A DNA stretch of 63,992 nt from an uncultured Thermoanaerobaculia bacterium (GCA_964641295.1 CAZXNA010000003.1:1-63992), one strand, 5' to 3'; positions 30,392-53,563 are shown, counted from the first letter of the stretch. The notes: generated by a model from the letters alone, not told the origin. A program made the numbers and translations.

Positions 30392-30859
30392 TCAGCCGAG
30401 GAAGGAGCTCTCCTGCTCGAGCTTCTGGCAGTCGGAGCACAGTCCCTGGATCTGGATGGAGTAGAACGAAGGCCTGAAACCGTGCTCGGCACAGATCTGG
30501 CGTTGCCGCTCGTCCATGGCCGGATCCCAGAACTCGATGATCTTGCCGCAGTGGGTGCAGACCATGTGGTCGTGCCGTTTGCCCGGCTGGACCTTCTCGT
30601 AGAAGTAGTGCTCGTGCCCAAGACGGCTCTTCCGGACGAGGCCGCACTGGACGAGGAGGTCGAGGGTCCGGTAAACCGTCGCCCGGGACACCTTGCGGTG
30701 TTTGGCCTTCATCTTGGCCAGCAACTCTTCGGCGTCCAGATGCTCGTTGGTGGAGAAGATCTCGTCCAATAGGGCGAGCCGCTCCTGCGTCACCTTGAGA
30801 TTGTTTTCCCGAAGGTATTGGATGAAAAGCTTCTGTGCCCTTTGCGAGAGTGTACCCAT
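30392..30859 (-). CDS. fur: Fur-family metalloregulator
   Basis: VTQERLALL..., RATVYRTLDLL winged helix, HDHMVCTHCG...CSDC metal sites. Confidence 0.85.
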   Translation of the reverse strand: MGTLSQRAQKLFIQYLRENNLKVTQERLALLDEIFSTNEHLDAEELLAKMKAKHRKVSRATVYRTLDLLVQCGLVRKSRLGHEHYFYEKVQPGKRHDHMVCTHCGKIIEFWDPAMDERQRQICAEHGFRPSFYSIQIQGLCSDCQKLEQESSFLG

Positions 30860-31146
30860 GGTTCTAATCCAGTCTCATTATCAATGTTCCACCTCCACCA
30901 TAAAGATCCAGGGCCTCCCTGTCAAGTCCCAAAACGCTGAGGAATTAGTACTCTACATAACCATATGTGGATATTCAAATTGATAGAGTCCCCACTTGAC
31001 ATGGTCGATAGTTGAGAGTTACCTTTGTTGTGAATACGCTCAAGCGCGCACTGGTACATATTAGAAAACAACAGTCTGGGCCTGGTGTACCTGTGGCGCC
31101 CCGGTGGGGCGGTTCTCAACCGGAGTGTTGTATTCGGTCCTCCGCT

Positions 31147-31162
31147 TGTGATTTTTGTCACA
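31147..31162. promoter_or_regulatory. Perfect CRP-type palindrome TGTGA-N6-TCACA
   Basis: TGTGATTTTTGTCACA, 88 nt upstream of the porin GTG 31250. A weaker TGTGA-N6-TCAAG lies at 31029..31044. Confidence 0.5.
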
Positions 31163-31249
31163 GGGCTCTGTCCGGAAATCGAAACCCAAACCGTCCTTTC
31201 GCCGCAACTGCCGCGGGAGACGGTACCAGATGAGGGGGGGGAAAAGGCC

Positions 31250-33118
31250 GTGAGGATTTCCCATGGGCGAGGGGCGGTTTTCACAGGGATCTTTGTGGCT
31301 GTGGTCGGGTTCCTGGCCGTTCCGGGCCATTCGCAGACCCTGACGGGGGCCATCGGTGTGGCCTACGCGTGGCAGAGTTCGAGTGGCAACGCATCGAGTT
31401 TCCGGAGCCAGACGGACCTGAGGCCGGGCTTCATCCTCGAAGAGCTCGATCTGACGCTTCCCCGGGAGGACGGTGGGGACCGCTTTTCCCTTCGGGCGTG
31501 GGGCTTCGGCCGGTCGGAGCCCGCCGAGGGGGCGGTGCTGACGGCCGATCTCGGCAGGGCCTTTTCCCTGGACGTGCGCTACGACCGGCGGCGGTCCTTT
31601 TTCGAGCTGGCGGAGGGCGATCTCTCGGCCCGGTCGGACCGGTGGCACATCACCCGCTGGCGGGGCGCACTGGCATGGGATGGCTGGTCGTTCGCGCGGT
31701 TGACCCTGGATCTGCGCCACACGGACCGCGGGGGCACGGTGCATCGGCTCTCCTACGGCCTCAACGAGCTCTACCCGATCCGTGTGGCCCTGGACGAGAG
31801 CATGGACGAGGCCGCGATCCGGTTCGAGACCAAGACGCTGCCGGTTCACATCCGCTTCGAGCAGGCCTTCGCCACCTTCACGCGGAAGAACCGGCCGGCG
31901 CCGGACGGCTCGGTCTCCGTCGGGGGCGATCCCGATCTGCTGACCGATCTCGGGACGAGCTACGAGGACAGCCAGGACGTGCCGACCACACGCCTTGACC
32001 TCTCCTGGGCCGGGCGGAGCGTCGAGGTGGCGGCCAACATCCTGTGGAGCTCGGCGGACCTGGACTCGACGGGCTCGGGCTGGCAGGAGTACGCCATCTC
32101 CGCCGGCGAGGCCGGGACGATCCGGATGGTGGACGACATCGTCGGCACGGCGAGCATGGACACCCTGGCCGGAGGGATCGCCGTGGGCGTTCGCCTGGGC
32201 GGTCGGTGGCAGCTCAAGCTGCGGAGCGACTACCGGGACGCGTCGTCGGACTCGACCCTCATGGGGATGCGCTTGCTCAAGGTCACCAACCCGGCCGGTG
32301 GAGGCCTGGAGCTCTCGGCGCCCATGGACGACTCGGGCCGCTACGACTTTACGGATTTCGGCGGCGAGGCGACGGTGGAGTACCGGGCGGACCGTTTCGC
32401 CGTGTGGGGTGGTGGGCTGGTCGGGAGCCGGGAGGTCAGCTGGAGGCGTTTCGACGGCGATCCCGGGGAGGACGTCACACGGGACACCTCGGGCATCCTG
32501 GTGGGCGGGTCCTTGCACCTGGCCTCGAAGCTCCGCGGGAGCGTGGAGTACCGCCACGGCTCCTTCGAGAAGTACGTCTTCAGGACGGATCCGGAGACGG
32601 TGGACGCCGTCAGCCTGCGACTCTCGGCCGATCTGGGAGCGGGGTTCAGCCTTGTGGCCAACGGGAGCTTCGAGAGCGCCGACAACCCCGCTTCGGAGTC
32701 TTCCCTGGACGTCAGCTCGGGAGCGGGGGGCCTTGGACTCGCCTGGGCCTCGGCCGACGGCAAGGCCTCGGCGGGGGTTTCGGCGAGCCTGGTGGACCTG
32801 ACGACCGAGACCTCCCTTGTGCTACCCGGCGGGACCGAGGGGCAGTCGCGCTACGACCTCAACCTGACGACCCTGGGCGTCTACGGTGCCATGGACTGGG
32901 GAGTCGTTCTCCTGAGGGGTTCGGTGACGTGGATGGAGGACACGGGGGACAGCTGGCCGGTCACTGCGTGGAACGGGGCGGTGCGCCTTGGTTACCGCGT
33001 GATGGAAAGGCTGGAGCTGGCGGCCTTCGTCCGGTACTGGTCCTACGACGAAGGGCTCTCCGAGCTCGATGATTTCGATCTAACGCGCTACGGCCTGGCC
33101 GTGAGATGGAGCTTCTGA
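31250..33118 (+). CDS. Outer-membrane beta-barrel protein, MtrB/PioB-like porin candidate
   Basis: GTG 31250. Signal peptide VRISHGRGAVFTGIFVAVVGFLAVPGHSQ. Alternating strand pattern throughout. C-terminal YGLAVRWSF. Its stop overlaps the decahaem gene start. Confidence 0.6.
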   Translation: MRISHGRGAVFTGIFVAVVGFLAVPGHSQTLTGAIGVAYAWQSSSGNASSFRSQTDLRPGFILEELDLTLPREDGGDRFSLRAWGFGRSEPAEGAVLTADLGRAFSLDVRYDRRRSFFELAEGDLSARSDRWHITRWRGALAWDGWSFARLTLDLRHTDRGGTVHRLSYGLNELYPIRVALDESMDEAAIRFETKTLPVHIRFEQAFATFTRKNRPAPDGSVSVGGDPDLLTDLGTSYEDSQDVPTTRLDLSWAGRSVEVAANILWSSADLDSTGSGWQEYAISAGEAGTIRMVDDIVGTASMDTLAGGIAVGVRLGGRWQLKLRSDYRDASSDSTLMGMRLLKVTNPAGGGLELSAPMDDSGRYDFTDFGGEATVEYRADRFAVWGGGLVGSREVSWRRFDGDPGEDVTRDTSGILVGGSLHLASKLRGSVEYRHGSFEKYVFRTDPETVDAVSLRLSADLGAGFSLVANGSFESADNPASESSLDVSSGAGGLGLAWASADGKASAGVSASLVDLTTETSLVLPGGTEGQSRYDLNLTTLGVYGAMDWGVVLLRGSVTWMEDTGDSWPVTAWNGAVRLGYRVMERLELAAFVRYWSYDEGLSELDDFDLTRYGLAVRWSF

Positions 33119-33972
33119 TGCGGAGCACACTGTGGACCCTGTTGTTGGCCGGGGCGGTGGCCGCCGCCGTGCCGGGGATGGCCCAGGACACGGGTGGTGG
33201 GGAGCCCGTGACCCTGAAGACCTGTGCCACGTGCCACGACGACGTGGCTGCGGCCTTTGCGGCCGGACCCCATGGGCGCGCCATGGCCAAGGTCTCTTCC
33301 AAGCTCCTGGAGCGCTCGTGCGTCGGCTGCCATGGGCCGGCTGCGGCCCACGTGGACGATCCCTCGCCGGAGAACATCAACGCTCACCCGGGATCGCAGG
33401 CCTGCGCCATGTGCCATGGGGACCGTGCCGGGGGCGTGGAGCTCAACATGCCGGCCCATCCGAGAAACGACGTCCAGTGCCTGGACTGCCACACCCCGGG
33501 GCACAGCGACTCCGGAACCGAGCACATGCTCCTCAAGCCCGTGAGGCAGCTCTGCGCCGGCTGCCACCAGCTGGAAGCGGCGCGGTTCCAGTGGCCCTAC
33601 GCCCACCGGAAGGGAGCCCAGGAGCCCTTCGAATGCACTGCGTGCCACGATCCCCACGGGGAGAACCGGAGCGGCCGGCTGACCCTGCTGGGCAACGGTG
33701 GTGTCTGCATCGAGTGCCACACGGAAAAGGCGGGGCCCTTTGTCTACCCACACCCGCCGCGGGAGGTCGACGGTTGCGTCACCTGCCACGAGCCTCACGG
33801 CTCCATGAACGCGCGACAGCTCAAGCGGTCGAGCATCACCAACCTCTGTCTCGAATGTCACGCCGACGTCCCGGTGTTTCATGACCTTTCGCAGGCGCGC
33901 TACCGGGCGTGCCAGAACTGTCACGTCGCGGTTCACGGCTCCAACCGTGATCCGCGCCTGCTGGCGGAGTGA
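33106..33972 (+). CDS. Periplasmic decahaem c-type cytochrome, MtrA/DmsE/PioA-like
   Basis: Ten CxxCH motifs in 288 aa (CATCH, CVGCH, CAMCH, CLDCH, CAGCH, CTACH, CIECH, CVTCH, CLECH, CQNCH). GPFVYPHPP and CQNCHVAVHGSN are DmsE-family-like. ATG 33118 is the alternative start. Confidence 0.8.
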   Translation: MELLMRSTLWTLLLAGAVAAAVPGMAQDTGGGEPVTLKTCATCHDDVAAAFAAGPHGRAMAKVSSKLLERSCVGCHGPAAAHVDDPSPENINAHPGSQACAMCHGDRAGGVELNMPAHPRNDVQCLDCHTPGHSDSGTEHMLLKPVRQLCAGCHQLEAARFQWPYAHRKGAQEPFECTACHDPHGENRSGRLTLLGNGGVCIECHTEKAGPFVYPHPPREVDGCVTCHEPHGSMNARQLKRSSITNLCLECHADVPVFHDLSQARYRACQNCHVAVHGSNRDPRLLAE

Positions 33973-34021
33973 GCCCATGAGCGGGCGAACAACCCCCCGA
34001 AACGGGGAGAAGGAGGTGCGT

Positions 34022-35836
34022 ATGAAACGAGGAACGAGTGTCATGGCAGTGGCGGTCCTGGTGGTCGCCGTGGCCGCGACCGCCGGGGCCCAGCACATGA
34101 GGGCGAGCCATGGAACGCGGGCAACGCCGGCCGACCCGATCAGCTTCACCCAGGGCGTCCAGAAGCTCCAGACCCTGTACAGCGCCCAGGAGCTGGCAGA
34201 GGGGACCTACGTCGGGTCGGAGTTCTGCATCGCCTGCCACCAGGACAAGGCGGGATTCCGGTACACCCTGCACCGCATGAAGATCCGCGTTCCCAGGCCC
34301 GACACGGTGGTCAACGATTACAACCAGAACGGCATCAACGATTTTGACGAGGGACTGGATTTCAACCAGATCTCCTCGGACTTCGACGTCTACAAGCCCA
34401 ATGCCCCCAAGCTCTCCCACGAGGGCGACACCTACTACATCACCATCGGCGACCTCAAGATGCCCCTGGTGGCGGCTCAGGGCGGCGTCGGCTGGAAGCA
34501 GCGCTATGTGGTGCGCGTTCCGGTCACCGGTACCCCCGACGGCCTGACGGCCGGCAACTATATCTCGCCCATCCAGTACAACCTCAAGACCCACGGCTAC
34601 GTGGTGTACCACGGCTCCGACTGGTACGACGCCAACAACCAGCCCAAGTTCCACACCGGCGTCAGTGCGGCCGACTTCGCGGCCAACAACACGCGCTCCT
34701 ACTCCAAGGGGTGCATCGGCTGCCACTCCACCGGCGTCAAGTCCATCGTGCAGGACGCCAACGGCGAGTGGCAGGCGGACCTGTGGCCGGCGGCCCTTTA
34801 CCAGCCGGACGATCCCACCTACTGGGACTTCGACCATGACGGCAACAAGGACCTGACCAACGTCGGCTGCGAGAGCTGTCACGGTCCCGGCTCGGCGCAC
34901 GTCCTCGGCGGGGGAGATCCTTCCAAGATCGTCAACCCCGCCGATCTGGACACCGAGGAGGCAAACCAGGTCTGCGGCCAGTGCCACCTCCGGCCCAAAT
35001 CGGTGCCGAGCGGCCTCTTCGGCTTCCCCTACAACGAGACCGAGCAGCGGCAGTGGATTCCGGGATCGGGCGAGGACCTCAACGACTTCGGAACCGACGC
35101 CGCGGGCCGCTGGCCGGACGGCGTCCACTCCAAGCAGCACCACCAGCAGTGGCTGGACTTCAACGAGTCCAGCAAGCCGACCTTCCCATTCCACCCGGTT
35201 CGCTGCTCCGAGTGCCACGAGCCGCACCGCAACACGGCCAACGAGCACCAGATCGTGGAGTCCATCGAGGACGACGGCGTGGTCATCCCGACGGCCAACG
35301 ACAACAACACCCTCTGCCTGGCGTGCCACGCCACCCACGGCGATTTCGAGGACATCACACCGGAGATGGTGGCCAACTACGAGGAGAACATCGGCGTCAT
35401 CGGCGCCACCGTGGCCGCCCACACCCACCACCCCTACGCGCCCGATCGGGCGCTCGGCCTGTCGCGCTGCTCCAAGTGCCACATGCCGACGGTGGCCAAG
35501 TCGGCCATCAGCTTCGACATCCACTCGCACACCTTCGAGGCCATCCCACCCGAGAAGACGCTCATGTACCAGGACCAGGGCGGGATGCCCAACTCCTGCG
35601 CCGTCAGCTGTCACTCCCAGAAGGTCAACCTCTGGGAGTTCGGGATCTCGGACGATATCGCCGTCTGGAACAGCGACTTCGAGGTCATGAACGCCAACGA
35701 GCTGATGGAGTACTTTGGCCCAGGCGGCCTGTGGTGGGACACCGACCAGGCGCAGTCCATGACGGCCAGGGTGATGCGGAACGCCGCACCTCCAGGTGAG
35801 ATCATCGTCGATCCCAACGAGGAACCGGAGGACTGA
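34022..35836 (+). CDS. Secreted multihaem c-type cytochrome (7 CxxCH + 1 CxxxCH)
   Basis: Internal ATG 34022 (GGAGAAGGAGG SD). Signal peptide without a lipobox. CIACH, CIGCH, CESCH, CGQCH, CSECH, CLACH, CSKCH plus CAVSCH. Confidence 0.8.
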   Translation: MKRGTSVMAVAVLVVAVAATAGAQHMRASHGTRATPADPISFTQGVQKLQTLYSAQELAEGTYVGSEFCIACHQDKAGFRYTLHRMKIRVPRPDTVVNDYNQNGINDFDEGLDFNQISSDFDVYKPNAPKLSHEGDTYYITIGDLKMPLVAAQGGVGWKQRYVVRVPVTGTPDGLTAGNYISPIQYNLKTHGYVVYHGSDWYDANNQPKFHTGVSAADFAANNTRSYSKGCIGCHSTGVKSIVQDANGEWQADLWPAALYQPDDPTYWDFDHDGNKDLTNVGCESCHGPGSAHVLGGGDPSKIVNPADLDTEEANQVCGQCHLRPKSVPSGLFGFPYNETEQRQWIPGSGEDLNDFGTDAAGRWPDGVHSKQHHQQWLDFNESSKPTFPFHPVRCSECHEPHRNTANEHQIVESIEDDGVVIPTANDNNTLCLACHATHGDFEDITPEMVANYEENIGVIGATVAAHTHHPYAPDRALGLSRCSKCHMPTVAKSAISFDIHSHTFEAIPPEKTLMYQDQGGMPNSCAVSCHSQKVNLWEFGISDDIAVWNSDFEVMNANELMEYFGPGGLWWDTDQAQSMTARVMRNAAPPGEIIVDPNEEPED

Positions 35837-35866
35837 CACCCGGCGCCTGAACGACAACCTTCAACG

Positions 35867-35896
35867 CGGGGAGGGCACGCGCCCTCCCCGTTTTCT
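35867..35896 (+). terminator. Rho-independent terminator after the cytochrome operon
   Basis: CGGGGAGGGC-ACGC-GCCCTCCCCG, 10-bp perfect stem, followed by TTTTCT. Confidence 0.8.
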
Positions 35897-35938
35897 CGGT
35901 GCTATTGTTGAGGTGAAACGACCAGAGGAGAATGTTCT

Positions 35939-37468
35939 ATGGATTACCCGATTTGGGACGTTGCCATGGGCGGTGAACTGCTCATGGCCCTGGTGGCCGT
36001 CACCCACGTCATCGTGTCCCACTTCGCCATCGGCGGCGGCCTGCTGATCGTGGTGGCCGAGACCCTGTCCGTGCGGCGTGGGGACCGGGAGCTCCGGGAG
36101 CTGGCCCGCCGCTCCTCGCTGGTGCTGATCCTCTTCTCCACGGTATTCGGGGCCATCTCAGGGGTGGGCATCTGGGTGGTGGCAGGGCTGATCTCCCCGG
36201 GGGCCATCTCGGCCCTGATCCACACCTACGTCTGGGGTTGGGCCATGGAGTGGGTGTTCTTCATCCTCGAGATCGTTGCTGCCCTGATCTACTACGCCAC
36301 CTGGAACAAGATCTCCAAGGGCGCCCACCTTCTCGTCGGGTGGCTCTATTTCGTCGGGGCCTATGGCTCCCTCGTCATCATCAATGGAATCGTCACCTTC
36401 ATGCTGACGCCGGGCCGTTGGCTGGAGACCCGCGACTTCTGGGACGGCTTCTTCAACCCCACCAACTGGCCCAGCGTCGTGCTGAGGACGGGTATCGCCC
36501 TGATGATGGCGGCCGTCTTCATGGTCTTTCCAGCCCTCAAGGCCTCCGCCGGGGCACGGCCTCGCCTCCTCCGCTTCCTGGGGTGGTGGCTCGTGGCGGG
36601 AACCCTCCTGGCCTACGGCGGCTACCGCTGGTGGGAGACGGAGCTTCTTCCCGCCAGCCGGAGCCTCTTCCTCGGCGCGGCACCCTTGCTGGAGAAGCTG
36701 GCGGCCACGCGTACCTTCACACTGTGGTCCATGGCCCTCACCCTGGCCCTGGCCCTGGTTTTCCTCGTGGGGATGCCCCGGTTGATGCGGGTGGTCGTAG
36801 CGGTCGTGGTGGCCCTGGCCGCCTTCTCCTCCTTCGCGGGTTTCGAGCGGGTTCGCGAGGGTGTCCGGAAGCCGTTCCTCATTCACGGCTACATGTTTTC
36901 CAACGGCTTGCTGGTGGAGCGGATCCCGGAGATCAACGAGAAAGGAATCCTCGCCGTCTCCGGATGGGCGGCCCGGATCGCTGGCGACGACCCCGTGTCC
37001 GTGGGGCGGCAGATCTTCCGCGTGGAGTGTTCCGCGTGTCATACCCTCGACGGGTACCAGAGTATCCGCCGGGCCCTGCCAACCGCGGACGATCTCGCCG
37101 CCGTGGCCGCCGGGGGTGCGGGAGAGGAAGGGGAACGGGCGTTCCGCGCCCAGTGCCTCTCCTGCCACCGGGATTCCTCGGCGGCTGAGATGGCCGAGAG
37201 CCTCCCCTCCCCGGAGGAGATGAAGGAGGACCCGGAAATGATCCAGGACCTCCTCGCCGGTATGGTCGAGGGGACCCTGGTGAACCTCAAGGACATGGGC
37301 GAGGTCTACGCCGAGGCGGGGGGCTCCGGCCCCGTCGATACGAGGGGCCTCTCCCATCCCTACATGCCGCCCTTCGCCGGTACGGACGAGGAGCTCGAGG
37401 CCCTGGCCGCCTACCTGGAGACGCTCGGACCCCCCGACACGCCCGACGCCGGGGAAGGAGGCCGGTGA
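35939..37468 (+). CDS. Cytochrome bd subunit-I-like membrane domain fused to two C-terminal c-type haem domains
   Basis: N-terminus MDYPIWDVAMGGELLMALVAVTHVIVSHFAIGGGLL resembles CydA-family N-termini. About 8 TM segments. C-terminal soluble part has CSACH and CLSCH. Confidence 0.5.
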   Translation: MDYPIWDVAMGGELLMALVAVTHVIVSHFAIGGGLLIVVAETLSVRRGDRELRELARRSSLVLILFSTVFGAISGVGIWVVAGLISPGAISALIHTYVWGWAMEWVFFILEIVAALIYYATWNKISKGAHLLVGWLYFVGAYGSLVIINGIVTFMLTPGRWLETRDFWDGFFNPTNWPSVVLRTGIALMMAAVFMVFPALKASAGARPRLLRFLGWWLVAGTLLAYGGYRWWETELLPASRSLFLGAAPLLEKLAATRTFTLWSMALTLALALVFLVGMPRLMRVVVAVVVALAAFSSFAGFERVREGVRKPFLIHGYMFSNGLLVERIPEINEKGILAVSGWAARIAGDDPVSVGRQIFRVECSACHTLDGYQSIRRALPTADDLAAVAAGGAGEEGERAFRAQCLSCHRDSSAAEMAESLPSPEEMKEDPEMIQDLLAGMVEGTLVNLKDMGEVYAEAGGSGPVDTRGLSHPYMPPFAGTDEELEALAAYLETLGPPDTPDAGEGGR

Positions 37469-38580
37469 TGCTGCCCGATTTGATTCCCGCACCCGACGCC
37501 GCTCCCCTGCCAGGGCCTGCGTGGCTCTTCCAGCTCCTGCTGGTCTTGACCTTCTTTCTGCACCTGATCTTCGTCAACCTGGCCCTGGGCGGTACCCTGC
37601 TGGCGGCCCTCGCCCAGCTCGCTTCGAAAGGCCGTGAGGGGGACCCCAGAACCGCCCTGGCCTCGCGGTTGGCGGCCATCAACGGGTATGGCGTCTCCCT
37701 GGCCATCACAACGGGCGTCGCGCCATTGCTCTTCATCCAGGTGATCTACGGCCAGTATTTCTACTCTGCGACGATCCTCCTCGGCTGGATCTGGTTCTGC
37801 CTCCTGGCGGCGCTGATGGTCGGCTACTACGCCCTCTACCTCTACAAGTTCCGGCCCAGTCCGCCGAAAAGGACGGCGGGGTTCTGGCTCGTCGTCTCCG
37901 CGTTGATGTTCCTGGCGGTGGCGGTGGTCCAGGTGATGGTCAACCTGCTCCACTCCCAGCCGGGCCGCTGGCCCAACGCTCTCCACAACCCCTGGGTGAT
38001 CCTGGCCGACCCGACCTTCCTTCCGCGCCTGGCCCACTTCGTCCTGGCTGCCGTCGGCTTCTCGGCCCTTGTCGTGTGCTGGTGGGCCGTGCGGCAGGCC
38101 CGCCGGGGCGGGAGCCAGCTGGAAAGCGAGATGGCGACGTATACCTGGAAATGGGTGCTGTGGACCACCCTGCTCCAGATCGTGGATGGGGCCCTCCTGC
38201 TCCTGTTGCTGCCCGCAGACGTGCTTGGCAGGCTGATGAAGGGTGGGCCCGCAGCCCACATCCCCCTGACCCTCGGGATTCTCCTCGGCCTCGTTCTCCT
38301 CCTGCTGCTTGCACGTACCCAGCACCCCGTGAAGGCTCCAAGGGTGGTCGACATCACCCTCCTTCTCTACGTGGCCACCGTGCTCTCCATGGCCATCACG
38401 CGGCATCAGGTCCGCGGTTGGTACCTCGAGGAGGCCACCTCCAGGTACCACCTGGCGGAGGCTCCCCAGTGGAGCATCTTCCTCCTCTTCGCGGTGTTGC
38501 TGGTGGCCGGCCTGGCGACGGTGGCGTGGATGATCCGCAAGGTGCTGACCAGTCCGGCCGCGGGGGACGACGCCGCCTGA
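37465..38580 (+). CDS. Polytopic membrane protein coupled to the bd-like gene
   Basis: GTGATG overlap with the upstream stop. 371 aa, about 9 TM segments, no motif recognised. Confidence 0.5.
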   Translation: MMLPDLIPAPDAAPLPGPAWLFQLLLVLTFFLHLIFVNLALGGTLLAALAQLASKGREGDPRTALASRLAAINGYGVSLAITTGVAPLLFIQVIYGQYFYSATILLGWIWFCLLAALMVGYYALYLYKFRPSPPKRTAGFWLVVSALMFLAVAVVQVMVNLLHSQPGRWPNALHNPWVILADPTFLPRLAHFVLAAVGFSALVVCWWAVRQARRGGSQLESEMATYTWKWVLWTTLLQIVDGALLLLLLPADVLGRLMKGGPAAHIPLTLGILLGLVLLLLLARTQHPVKAPRVVDITLLLYVATVLSMAITRHQVRGWYLEEATSRYHLAEAPQWSIFLLFAVLLVAGLATVAWMIRKVLTSPAAGDDAA

Positions 38581-40488: not shown

Positions 40489-40511
40489 GACGAAACCTCC
40501 CGTTTCTGTTT

Positions 40512-40735
40512 GGAACGGCAGGTCTCCTGACTTCCGGATCTGTTGGAGGCGTCCCAGGACGCCCGACAAGCGCCGGATCCGTTTACCTTCCCAGCCGGTC
40601 AACCCCTGTGGATCGTACCGACCAGTGGCCGGGTCTCCCCGTGAACGGTCCGTCCCCGGTTACAGTGGCGGGGGCCGTGCCGGACTCTCACCGGCTTCCC
40701 TTCGCCGCTCCGTTGGCTCCGAGCTTAGGCTGTCC
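40512..40735 (-). promoter_or_regulatory. Cobalamin riboswitch
   Basis: Minus strand reads ...GAAGGGAAGCCGGTGAGAGTCCGGCACGGCCCCCGCCACTGTAACCGGGGA...GGCCACTGG...CTGGGAAGG...AGTCAGGAGACCTGCC (B12 box), ending about 25 nt before the btuB start. Confidence 0.85.
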
Positions 40736-53487: not shown

Positions 53488-53563
53488 GGCGCGTTCGTCT
53501 AGGGGTCTAGGACGCCGGCCTCTCACGCCGGTAACACGGGTTCGAATCCCGTACGCGCTGCCA
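53488..53563 (+). tRNA. tRNA-Glu (anticodon CUC), CCA encoded
   Basis: GGCGCGT acceptor, TCTAGGGGTCTAGGA D-arm, CCGGC-CTCTCAC-GCCGG anticodon arm, ACGGG-TTCGAAT-CCCGT T-arm, ACGCGCT-G-CCA. Confidence 0.9.

Follow-up and report, generated by a model that had tools for sequence, protein, structure and literature searches.

How respiratory electrons cross the outer membrane of diderm bacteria is a question to which, to our knowledge, only the porin-cytochrome conduits provide a well-understood answer, and the conduits that we know to have been solved or genetically tested come almost all from Proteobacteria and Geobacter. The same question is raised by a 63,992-nucleotide (nt) stretch of DNA from an uncultured Thermoanaerobaculia bacterium (GCA_964641295.1, CAZXNA010000003.1:1-63992; the whole stretch is referred to here as the window), which carries at 31250-35836, on the plus strand, three co-oriented genes for a large outer-membrane beta-barrel protein, a decahaem c-type cytochrome and an octahaem c-type cytochrome, in that order. 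An earlier reading, made from the sequence alone, had proposed that these genes specify an outer-membrane electron conduit of unusual composition, and its view of the parts was borne out, the three products being an MtrB-like barrel, an MtrA-homologous decahaem and an OcwA-like octahaem. We consider it reasonably probable, though by no means assured, that the unit encodes an Mtr-type conduit in which the OcwA-like octahaem takes the place of MtrC as the outer, substrate-facing cytochrome.

Every statement that the sequence-only reading had made about the anatomy of the three genes held, i.e., products of 622, 288 and 604 amino acids (aa), a stop/start overlap between the first two genes, and the order porin, decahaem, third cytochrome (Table 1). 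The barrel gene starts with GTG, preceded by a G-rich stretch, in a frame that is open from 31085, and the alignment with its homologues (604-633 aa) begins near residue 7 of the 622-aa product. Its TGA (33116-33118) overlaps both candidate starts of the decahaem gene, the ATG at 33106 and the ATG at 33118 (in TGATG), and the octahaem gene begins 49 nt past the decahaem gene, with a strong ribosome-binding site (AAGGAGGTG) before its start. The strong terminator that had been noted after the third gene is a hairpin with an 11-base-pair G+C-rich stem (GCGGGGAGGGC-ACGC-GCCCTCCCCGT) followed by TTTCTC, which a simple terminator scan did not list and which folding revealed (-29.8 kcal/mol, z = -5.07; none of 200 shuffles folds as well). 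Two relatives (L001 and L007) carry, in the corresponding place, a hairpin with another sequence, and we read the structure as a conserved, predicted terminator that closes the three-gene unit. Tight packing and this terminator are best explained by a single predicted transcription unit.

The barrel protein has one N-terminal hydrophobic segment, no cysteine, and the C-terminus YGLAVRWSF. Its AlphaFold2 (AF2) model, built on a 27-sequence alignment (mean predicted local distance difference test score (pLDDT) 89, predicted template modelling score 0.80), is all-beta, with 26 long and two short strands, a count taken from the DSSP listing and not from the coordinates. In a Foldseek search of the PDB the top match was the MtrB chain 6r2q_B (E 6.4e-14, template modelling (TM) score 0.69/0.66), whereas the remaining listed matches, nearly all of them 22-strand TonB-dependent transporters, scored between 0.33 and 0.47, with the 22-strand receptors at 0.40-0.47, a difference on which a TonB-type transporter identity was rejected. 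The sequence-only reading had staked its proposal on a large barrel (20+ strands) with room for a cytochrome; the model has about 26, and its best solved match is MtrB. At the sequence level, a word-indexed protein search returned just 27 homologues, at first hinting at a rare protein, but when 1.84 billion representatives were searched exhaustively with a profile, 339 clusters at 50% identity proved to be related; 52 of these lay below 1e-30, and the tail contained full-length proteins of 620-690 aa. Given these clusters, and the divergent genome loci described below, the apparent rarity reflects a sensitivity limit of the word search.

Pfam scans of the 27 family members gave only generic OMP_b-brl and Porin_4 matches. 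The MtrB/PioB model PF11854 was reached by two of the ten distant profile hits that were scanned, P0361 with 23.9 bits (cut-off 23) and P0324 with 18.4 bits, and P0361 in turn matches the barrel profile at E 3.4e-15. Because of the fold match and this link, we regard the barrel family as MtrB-like by fold and only transitively so by sequence. The barrel of P0361 is related both to the window barrel family and, at the cut-off, to MtrB/PioB. In P0361 (895 aa) and in P0374 (886 aa) an N-terminal multihaem cytochrome domain, with eight CxxCH motifs in P0361, is fused before a related large barrel. These proteins would be covalently fused multihaem porin-cytochromes, and as such they lend independent support to the notion that such barrels act in concert with multihaem cytochromes, and indirect support to a decahaem threaded through the barrel.

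The decahaem has exactly ten CxxCH motifs and the C-terminus CQNCHVAVHGSN, the end of which is also given as CQNCHVAVHGSNRDPRLLAE. The MtrA chain of 6r2q aligns to residues 31-282, C-terminal motif included (E 1.5e-21), and judged by this alignment the decahaem is a homologue of MtrA. It has 1,403 homologues, many of which carry the Joint Genome Institute name 'DmsE family decaheme c-type cytochrome'. The MtrA/DmsE-like character that the sequence-only reading had assigned to it is supported by the MtrA alignment and by a match to the DmsE-family model that is full-length, though below the cut-off. Scores for other families were low, with 27-36 bits for the NrfB and NrfH models (cut-offs 134-167) and 140 bits for the GSU2203 decahaem model (cut-off 325). 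One finding named as speaking against a conduit was a decahaem of the NrfB type, shuttling electrons in a nitrite or sulfur pathway; with NrfB and NrfH far under their cut-offs and MtrA matched along its full length, this identity was rejected, the decahaem grouping with MtrA/DmsE, and no nitrite or sulfur pathway genes (nrf, ttr, sulfite pathway) are adjacent in the window neighbourhood.

Of the three products, the third is the informative one. It carries seven CxxCH motifs and one CAVSCH (C526-x3-C530-H531), and its signal peptide ends in AGAQ with no lipobox cysteine, as the sequence-only reading had stated. All eight motifs, CxxxCH included, are invariant in a 39-sequence alignment, and the pattern of seven CxxCH plus one CxxxCH recurs in 75 of 76 family members examined, the exception (L076) ending at a contig edge; such a pattern is far from chance. 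The family is large, with approximately 1,000 hits at 50% identity or more. When the AF2 model (pLDDT 82) was compared with the PDB, three matches were significant, and these were the only hits below 1e-3: two chains of OcwA (6i5b; E 5.5e-12, TM score 0.41/0.50) and OmhA (6qvm; E 2.8e-6). OcwA is a nonahaem and OmhA an S-layer undecahaem cytochrome, both of them terminal reductases at the surface of Gram-positive iron reducers (PMC6703420, PMC7829351). The octahaem family profile finds the same proteins, OcwA (6i5b_A) at E 4.2e-19 and 71.6 bits and OmhA at E 4.3e-5, while none of NrfA, ONR, HAO, OTR, MccA and MtrC turned up in the fold search, which listed matches to E 10. Neither CxxCK nor CX15CH was found in the sequence, the NrfA and NrfB models score far under their cut-offs against the window proteins, and PF22113 appears in the precomputed annotations of some homologues, with one faint hit recorded. 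On profile and fold, the octahaem is a distant homologue of OcwA and OmhA, within the NrfA/c554/MccA/OcwA superfamily. An MtrC-type outer cytochrome was rejected on the eight haem motifs, the missing lipobox and the fold matches, and the protein is not a classical octahaem enzyme either; the earlier placement 'closer to octahaem enzymes than to MtrC/OmcA' stands, in that it groups with OcwA/OmhA in the NrfA/c554/MccA superfamily.

The profile alignment, in which the OcwA chain numbering is offset by 29, pairs motifs 1-6 of the octahaem with OcwA haems 1-6, and motifs 7-8 with haems 8-9. The invariant pair H373-H374 aligns with OcwA H281-H282, a non-ligating pair above the five-coordinate haem 2, and the octahaem probably keeps this five-coordinate haem under its conserved His-His pair; it may thus also bind small substrates. 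The second His-His pair of OcwA is not kept, as OcwA H381 aligns with T468. Histidines H84, H293, H402, H467, H470 and H503 are invariant and M522 nearly so, the latter in a GGMPNSC motif that aligns with GMPDSC ahead of the last OcwA haem (haem 9, His-Met-ligated in OcwA). These seven residues are candidates for the distal ligand of each of the other seven haems, and the octahaem would accordingly have one open haem and seven six-coordinate haems. Two further invariant segments, residues 99-115 (window 34316-34366; NDYNQNGINDFDEGLDFN) and 267-283 (34820-34870; WDFDHDGNKDLTNVGC), are acidic loops of the DxDxNG/DxDxDG type, and look like putative calcium-binding sites.

The same three genes recur together in other genomes. 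A search of 185,579 species genomes with the octahaem gave 360 loci, of which the best 80 were examined by searching their six-frame open reading frames (ORFs) with the window proteins; 59 of these had sufficient flanking sequence to be informative. Barrel and decahaem adjoin the octahaem in 40 of the 59, in the order barrel-decahaem-octahaem in 37 loci and octahaem-barrel-decahaem in three, so that the barrel-decahaem adjacency was seen in 40 genome loci. The cassette persists where the barrel is only 40-44% identical and the remaining neighbourhood is unrelated, one such locus (L003) having a [NiFe] hydrogenase on its upstream side and Rieske/cytochrome b genes on its downstream side, and the other (L004) a 456-aa gene with no known identity downstream. 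Where a lineage is named, cassette loci are nearly all from Acidobacteriota (Thermoanaerobaculia, Holophagae, Solibacteraceae, Acanthopleuribacteraceae and Sulfomarinibacteraceae), including a metagenome-assembled genome (MAG) of Thermoanaerobaculum sp. (L016); one contig (L028) is binned as Acidimicrobiia. A cluster look-up linked the octahaem to no cultured type strain. Two of the Acidobacteriota cassettes have a second, diverged octahaem paralogue downstream (L043 5859-7799, L044 6093-7919).

Taken together, we infer a conduit in which the barrel of about 26 strands would serve as an insulating sheath across the outer membrane, and the MtrA/DmsE-type decahaem would run through its interior as a wire of haems linking periplasm and cell surface. 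The octahaem, with its haems ligated as proposed above, would be exported to cap this wire on the outside, where MtrC sits in Shewanella, and would act there as the terminal oxidoreductase. Its extracellular partner would be Fe(III)/Mn(IV) minerals, humics, shuttles or an electrode, which may give the cassette a metal-related role. Outward flow, i.e., reduction, is favoured only because a cultured Thermoanaerobaculum reduces Fe(III) and a MAG of the genus carries the cassette; Thermoanaerobaculum aquaticum is reported to do so in the papers cited within PMC6137239 and PMC9671151.

Several observations weigh against this arrangement. The full-length match of the decahaem to TIGR03508 (DmsE family; model positions 3-257 of 258) reaches 170.7 bits, below the curated cut-off of 192.2. 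The barrel, searched as a single sequence, has no Pfam, NCBIfam or PDB sequence match, and a profile search of the PDB gave noise; the comparison with the MtrB_PioB profile that the sequence-only reading had proposed came out negative, as none of the 27 family members matches PF11854 at E up to 10. In the octahaem, neither a lipobox or other anchor nor a signal for secretion across the outer membrane could be read from the sequence, and OcwA haem 7 has no counterpart in the family by profile alignment. Moreover, 19 of the 59 informative loci have the octahaem with no barrel or decahaem beside it; among these 19 are loci from other Acidobacteriota and all the informative Ignavibacteria (Melioribacteraceae), Calditrichia (Calditrichaceae) and KSB1 loci. 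In an Acidobacteriota genome (L003/L019, 12041-15556) and in a Melioribacteraceae MAG (L065, 4736-7536), Rieske, cytochrome b and multihaem cytochrome genes follow the octahaem gene, neighbours that would suit a periplasmic octahaem equally well.

The octahaem therefore does not need this conduit; it is a module in its own right, which Acidobacteriota have combined with an MtrAB-like core. No general conserved partner was found in the conduit-free loci, subsets of which have the octahaem near two-component regulators, Rieske/cytochrome b genes or a 17-haem cytochrome; the Rieske, cytochrome b and multihaem genes are possibly its dedicated quinol-oxidising partner. The 17-haem cytochrome is a protein of approximately 670 aa with 17 CxxCH that follows the octahaem in a Melioribacteraceae locus (L072, 11046-13061), and two other loci (L073 5498-7513, L081 2204-4231) have a cytochrome-like ORF (found by jackhmmer) of similar size in the same relative position.

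These observations bear most directly on an alternative in which the barrel and the decahaem suffice to cross the outer membrane, contact with the extracellular partner falls to the decahaem, and the octahaem stays in the periplasm, where it would link inner-membrane quinol-oxidising complexes to the periplasmic end of the decahaem as an electron hub or an enzyme. The signal peptide without a lipobox and the 19 conduit-free loci are both consistent with it, two separate lineages (L003/L019 and L065) place the octahaem right before the Rieske, cytochrome b and multihaem genes, and in the window and close relatives it precedes a cytochrome-c-dependent bd-like oxidase. MtoAB and PioAB function without an MtrC-type partner (PMC3274759). 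We nonetheless consider a periplasmic octahaem unlikely, if the most serious competitor, since the only relatives of known location, OcwA and OmhA, are at the cell surface (PMC6703420, PMC7829351), and since in 37 loci the gene is the last of a tight barrel-decahaem unit. A protein of 604 aa with an extra beta domain and two invariant DxDxNG/DxDxDG loops also appears unlike the small, soluble carriers known in the periplasm of Shewanella and Geobacter.

The bd-like oxidase is encoded by two genes after the terminator, which the sequence-only reading had left out of its account of the context. The first product is CydA-like, with a PF01654 match limited to positions 5-193 of 418 and PF13442/PF00034 matches at the C-terminus; the second has about 8-9 hydrophobic segments and no Pfam match, and resembles the N-terminal half of the first (26% over 184 aa, E 0.005). 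The pair resembles, by published description, the OR-C family of bd-type oxygen reductases, described as lacking a quinol site and as probably fed by cytochrome c (bioRxiv 10.1101/2021.01.16.426971). The features in line with that description are the CydA-like subunit, which matches no more than the first half of PF01654, its C-terminal c-type haem domain and the weakly paralogous partner.

These genes allow for a reading in which the conduit works as an uptake route: extracellular Fe(II) or some other reduced solid would supply the electrons, periplasmic carriers would pass them on, and the fused c-type haem domain of the oxidase would receive them from cytochromes rather than quinol, giving a short Fe(II)-to-O2 chain. 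Downstream of the cassette, and on its strand, the window has the CydA-like gene and its paralogous partner, as do L001, L002, L007 and L008; the OR-C family fits a supply from cytochrome c, the MtrA homologues MtoA and PioA work as oxidising systems, and Mtr conduits can run either way (PMC3274759, PMC8258643). We regard this uptake reading as distinctly improbable. A conserved terminator separates the cassette from the oxidase genes, and the CydA-like gene stands beside the cassette only in those close relatives (with a fragment in L005), which share the whole neighbourhood, so that the linkage may be mere synteny; unrelated genes follow other cassettes. Furthermore, the cultured relatives of the class are described, in the work cited within PMC6137239, as anaerobic Fe(III) reducers. 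Were the inward reading nevertheless correct, a catalytic octahaem with an open haem, as opposed to a cytochrome that only transfers electrons, at the surface end of an MtrAB-like wire running inward to the adjacent bd-type oxidase, would make a chain from Fe(II) or a solid donor to oxygen whose composition has not been described before, a combination to which we attach similarly little probability.

Least probable by far is the absence of extracellular electron transfer, with the octahaem as a periplasmic reductase of nitrite, hydroxylamine, tetrathionate or sulfite, the decahaem as its NrfB-like donor and the barrel as an ordinary diffusion or uptake channel: membership of the NrfA/c554/MccA/OcwA superfamily, a His-His pair above a probable open haem, the slow reduction of nitrite and hydroxylamine by OcwA in vitro and weak Pfam/NCBIfam matches to c554 and NrfB-like models point that way, but the octahaem has no CxxCK and no NrfA, ONR, HAO, OTR or MccA among its fold matches, the decahaem matches MtrA over its full length with the NrfB/NrfH models far under their cut-offs, the barrel, with some 26 strands and MtrB as its best match, is no diffusion porin, and nrf, ttr and sulfite-pathway genes are missing nearby, and an NrfB/NrfA-type nitrite system was rejected on model scores and fold matches.

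The wider neighbourhood had been taken to link the cassette, our candidate Mtr-type conduit, to iron. All the genes named in that context, i.e., a Fur-family gene divergent upstream of the cassette, ferritin and peroxiredoxin genes nearby, and a TonB-dependent receptor, are present; the link to iron did not hold up, since the receptor lies behind a cobalamin riboswitch and the regulator scores the same as PerR and as Fur (80.7 bits against 79.4 bits, both under their cut-offs). Because of these equal scores and the nearby peroxiredoxin and ferritin genes, the regulator may be a peroxide regulator. The Fur-box consensus TGATAATNATTATCA was not found in the window with up to three mismatches allowed, and we therefore make no claim of Fur control over the cassette. 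A half-site-like motif (30866-30885; reverse complement TGATAATGAGACTGGATT) lies just upstream of the Fur-family start, and is largely conserved in four relatives. The intergenic region that would hold the cassette promoter contains TTGACA at 30996-31001; in the alignment with the four relatives, a CTTGAC block is conserved on the plus strand, and likewise a TGTCAAG block, the -35 element of the only promoter-like site found, on the minus strand. The receptor is BtuB-like, as judged from the cobalamin riboswitch directly 5' of it and from the vitamin B12 receptor as its best model, and the ORF start listed at 40602 is probably too far upstream. Moreover, the Fur/ferritin/TonB neighbourhood is common only to close, fully syntenic relatives, and the iron context that it offers appears weak. 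The rest of the window looks like housekeeping genes, with no other multihaem cytochrome, and has a tRNA gene at 53488-53560 on the plus strand (RF00005, 60.5 bits).

Table 1. Features of the cassette and its neighbourhood, in window coordinates
Feature	Position	Strand	Evidence
Fur-family gene, divergent from the cassette	30392-30859	-	PerR and Fur models
Intergenic region, presumed cassette promoter region	30860..31249	+	between Fur-family gene and barrel gene; read directly; placement from sequence
Outer-membrane beta-barrel protein, 622 aa, signal peptide, ~26 strands, MtrB-like fold	31250..33118	+	AF2 model, Foldseek
Decahaem c-type cytochrome, MtrA/DmsE type, 288 aa (ATG 33106) or 284 aa (ATG 33118)	33106..33972	+	motif count, TIGR03508, MtrA alignment
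OcwA-family octahaem c-type cytochrome, 604 aa, signal peptide, no lipobox, beta domain inserted at ~residues 95-230	34022..35836	+	motifs, AF2, profile
Intrinsic-terminator-like hairpin and T-rich tail closing the three-gene unit	35866..35897	+	folding energy
CydA-like membrane protein with C-terminal dihaem cytochrome c domain (OR-C1a-like); membership uncertain	35939..37468	+	PF01654, PF13442/PF00034, two CxxCH
Polytopic membrane protein, 371 aa, probably paralogous second subunit (OR-C1b-like); membership uncertain	37465..38580	+	start overlaps CydA-like stop
TonB-dependent receptor, BtuB-like	38623 to ~40491	-	best model vitamin B12 receptor, 285 bits (below cut-off)
Cobalamin riboswitch	40500-40724	-	RF00174, 74.9 bits; directly 5' of TonB-dependent receptor

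The cassette looks like a previously undescribed version of the known porin-cytochrome conduit machinery, and one that is widespread and specific to Acidobacteriota. Within the library searched, we found no description of a barrel-MtrA-OcwA-like cassette, and nothing on Thermoanaerobaculia with multihaem cytochromes and a porin. 'MtrA' genes have been reported at the annotation level in Thermoanaerobaculum genomes (PMC9671151), and putative conduits, likewise at the annotation level, in Holophaga (PMC7399161). The nearest mention in the literature is an unannotated cluster of 'multihemes from Acidobacteria' in a tree of OmhA relatives (PMC7829351), and evolutionary work on the OcwA group lists only Clostridia for OcwA and OmhA (PMC9250108). 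The barrel is invisible to the MtrB/PioB models of iron-gene annotation tools, and surveys would therefore report at most an orphan 'MtrA/MtoA'. For sediments, hot springs and hydrothermal systems, the cassette provides a concrete marker of the iron and manganese cycling that Thermoanaerobaculia and Holophagae carry out, and if the octahaem is indeed the outer partner, it represents a second way, unrelated to the first, of building the end of the wire that faces the mineral.

The Pcc and Ext clusters of Geobacter (OmaB-OmbB-OmcB, ExtABCD, others) also have a barrel gene flanked by genes for periplasmic and outer multihaem cytochromes, but their periplasmic octa- or dodecahaem is unrelated to MtrA and their outer cytochrome is a lipoprotein (PMC4245776); the comparison drawn here is one of cytochromes. 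MtoAB and PioAB, of Fe(II) oxidisers, likewise combine a DmsE/MtrA-family decahaem with a large barrel and do without an MtrC-type partner, a likeness that makes inward flow possible for the window conduit, although there the decahaem gene precedes the barrel gene and the barrel is a recognisable MtrB/PioB member. We know of no OcwA-like octahaem that is part of MtoAB or PioAB clusters, the search listings of PMC3274759 and PMC5566968 included. The Shewanella MtrCAB complex (6R2Q) is alike in its barrel of about 26 strands, MtrB being the best fold match of the window barrel, in MtrA, to which the window decahaem is homologous over its whole length, the C-terminal CxNCHxxVHGSN included, and in having a third multihaem cytochrome in the operon. 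It differs in the gene order, C-A-B as opposed to barrel-decahaem-third cytochrome, in that the window barrel is tied to MtrB/PioB (PF11854) by sequence only transitively, and in the third protein itself, which is an MtrC/OmcA-type decahaem lipoprotein there and an OcwA-type octahaem with an ordinary signal peptide in the window.

The closest relatives of that third protein are OcwA of Thermincola potens and OmhA of Carboxydothermus ferrireducens, with which it shares sequence homology, its only significant fold matches, collinear haem motifs, the His-His pair above haem 2 and the GMP-x-SC motif before the last haem. Unlike them, it has eight haems, compared with nine in OcwA and eleven in OmhA, lacks the counterpart of OcwA haem 7, ends on a CxxxCH motif, and carries a larger N-terminal beta domain; where they have two five-coordinate haems, each under a His-His pair, it keeps only the first pair. 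Its host, moreover, is diderm, and its gene is joined to an MtrAB-like operon. The octahaem thereby ties the Gram-negative Mtr principle to the OcwA/OmhA surface reductases, hitherto known only from Gram-positive thermophiles.

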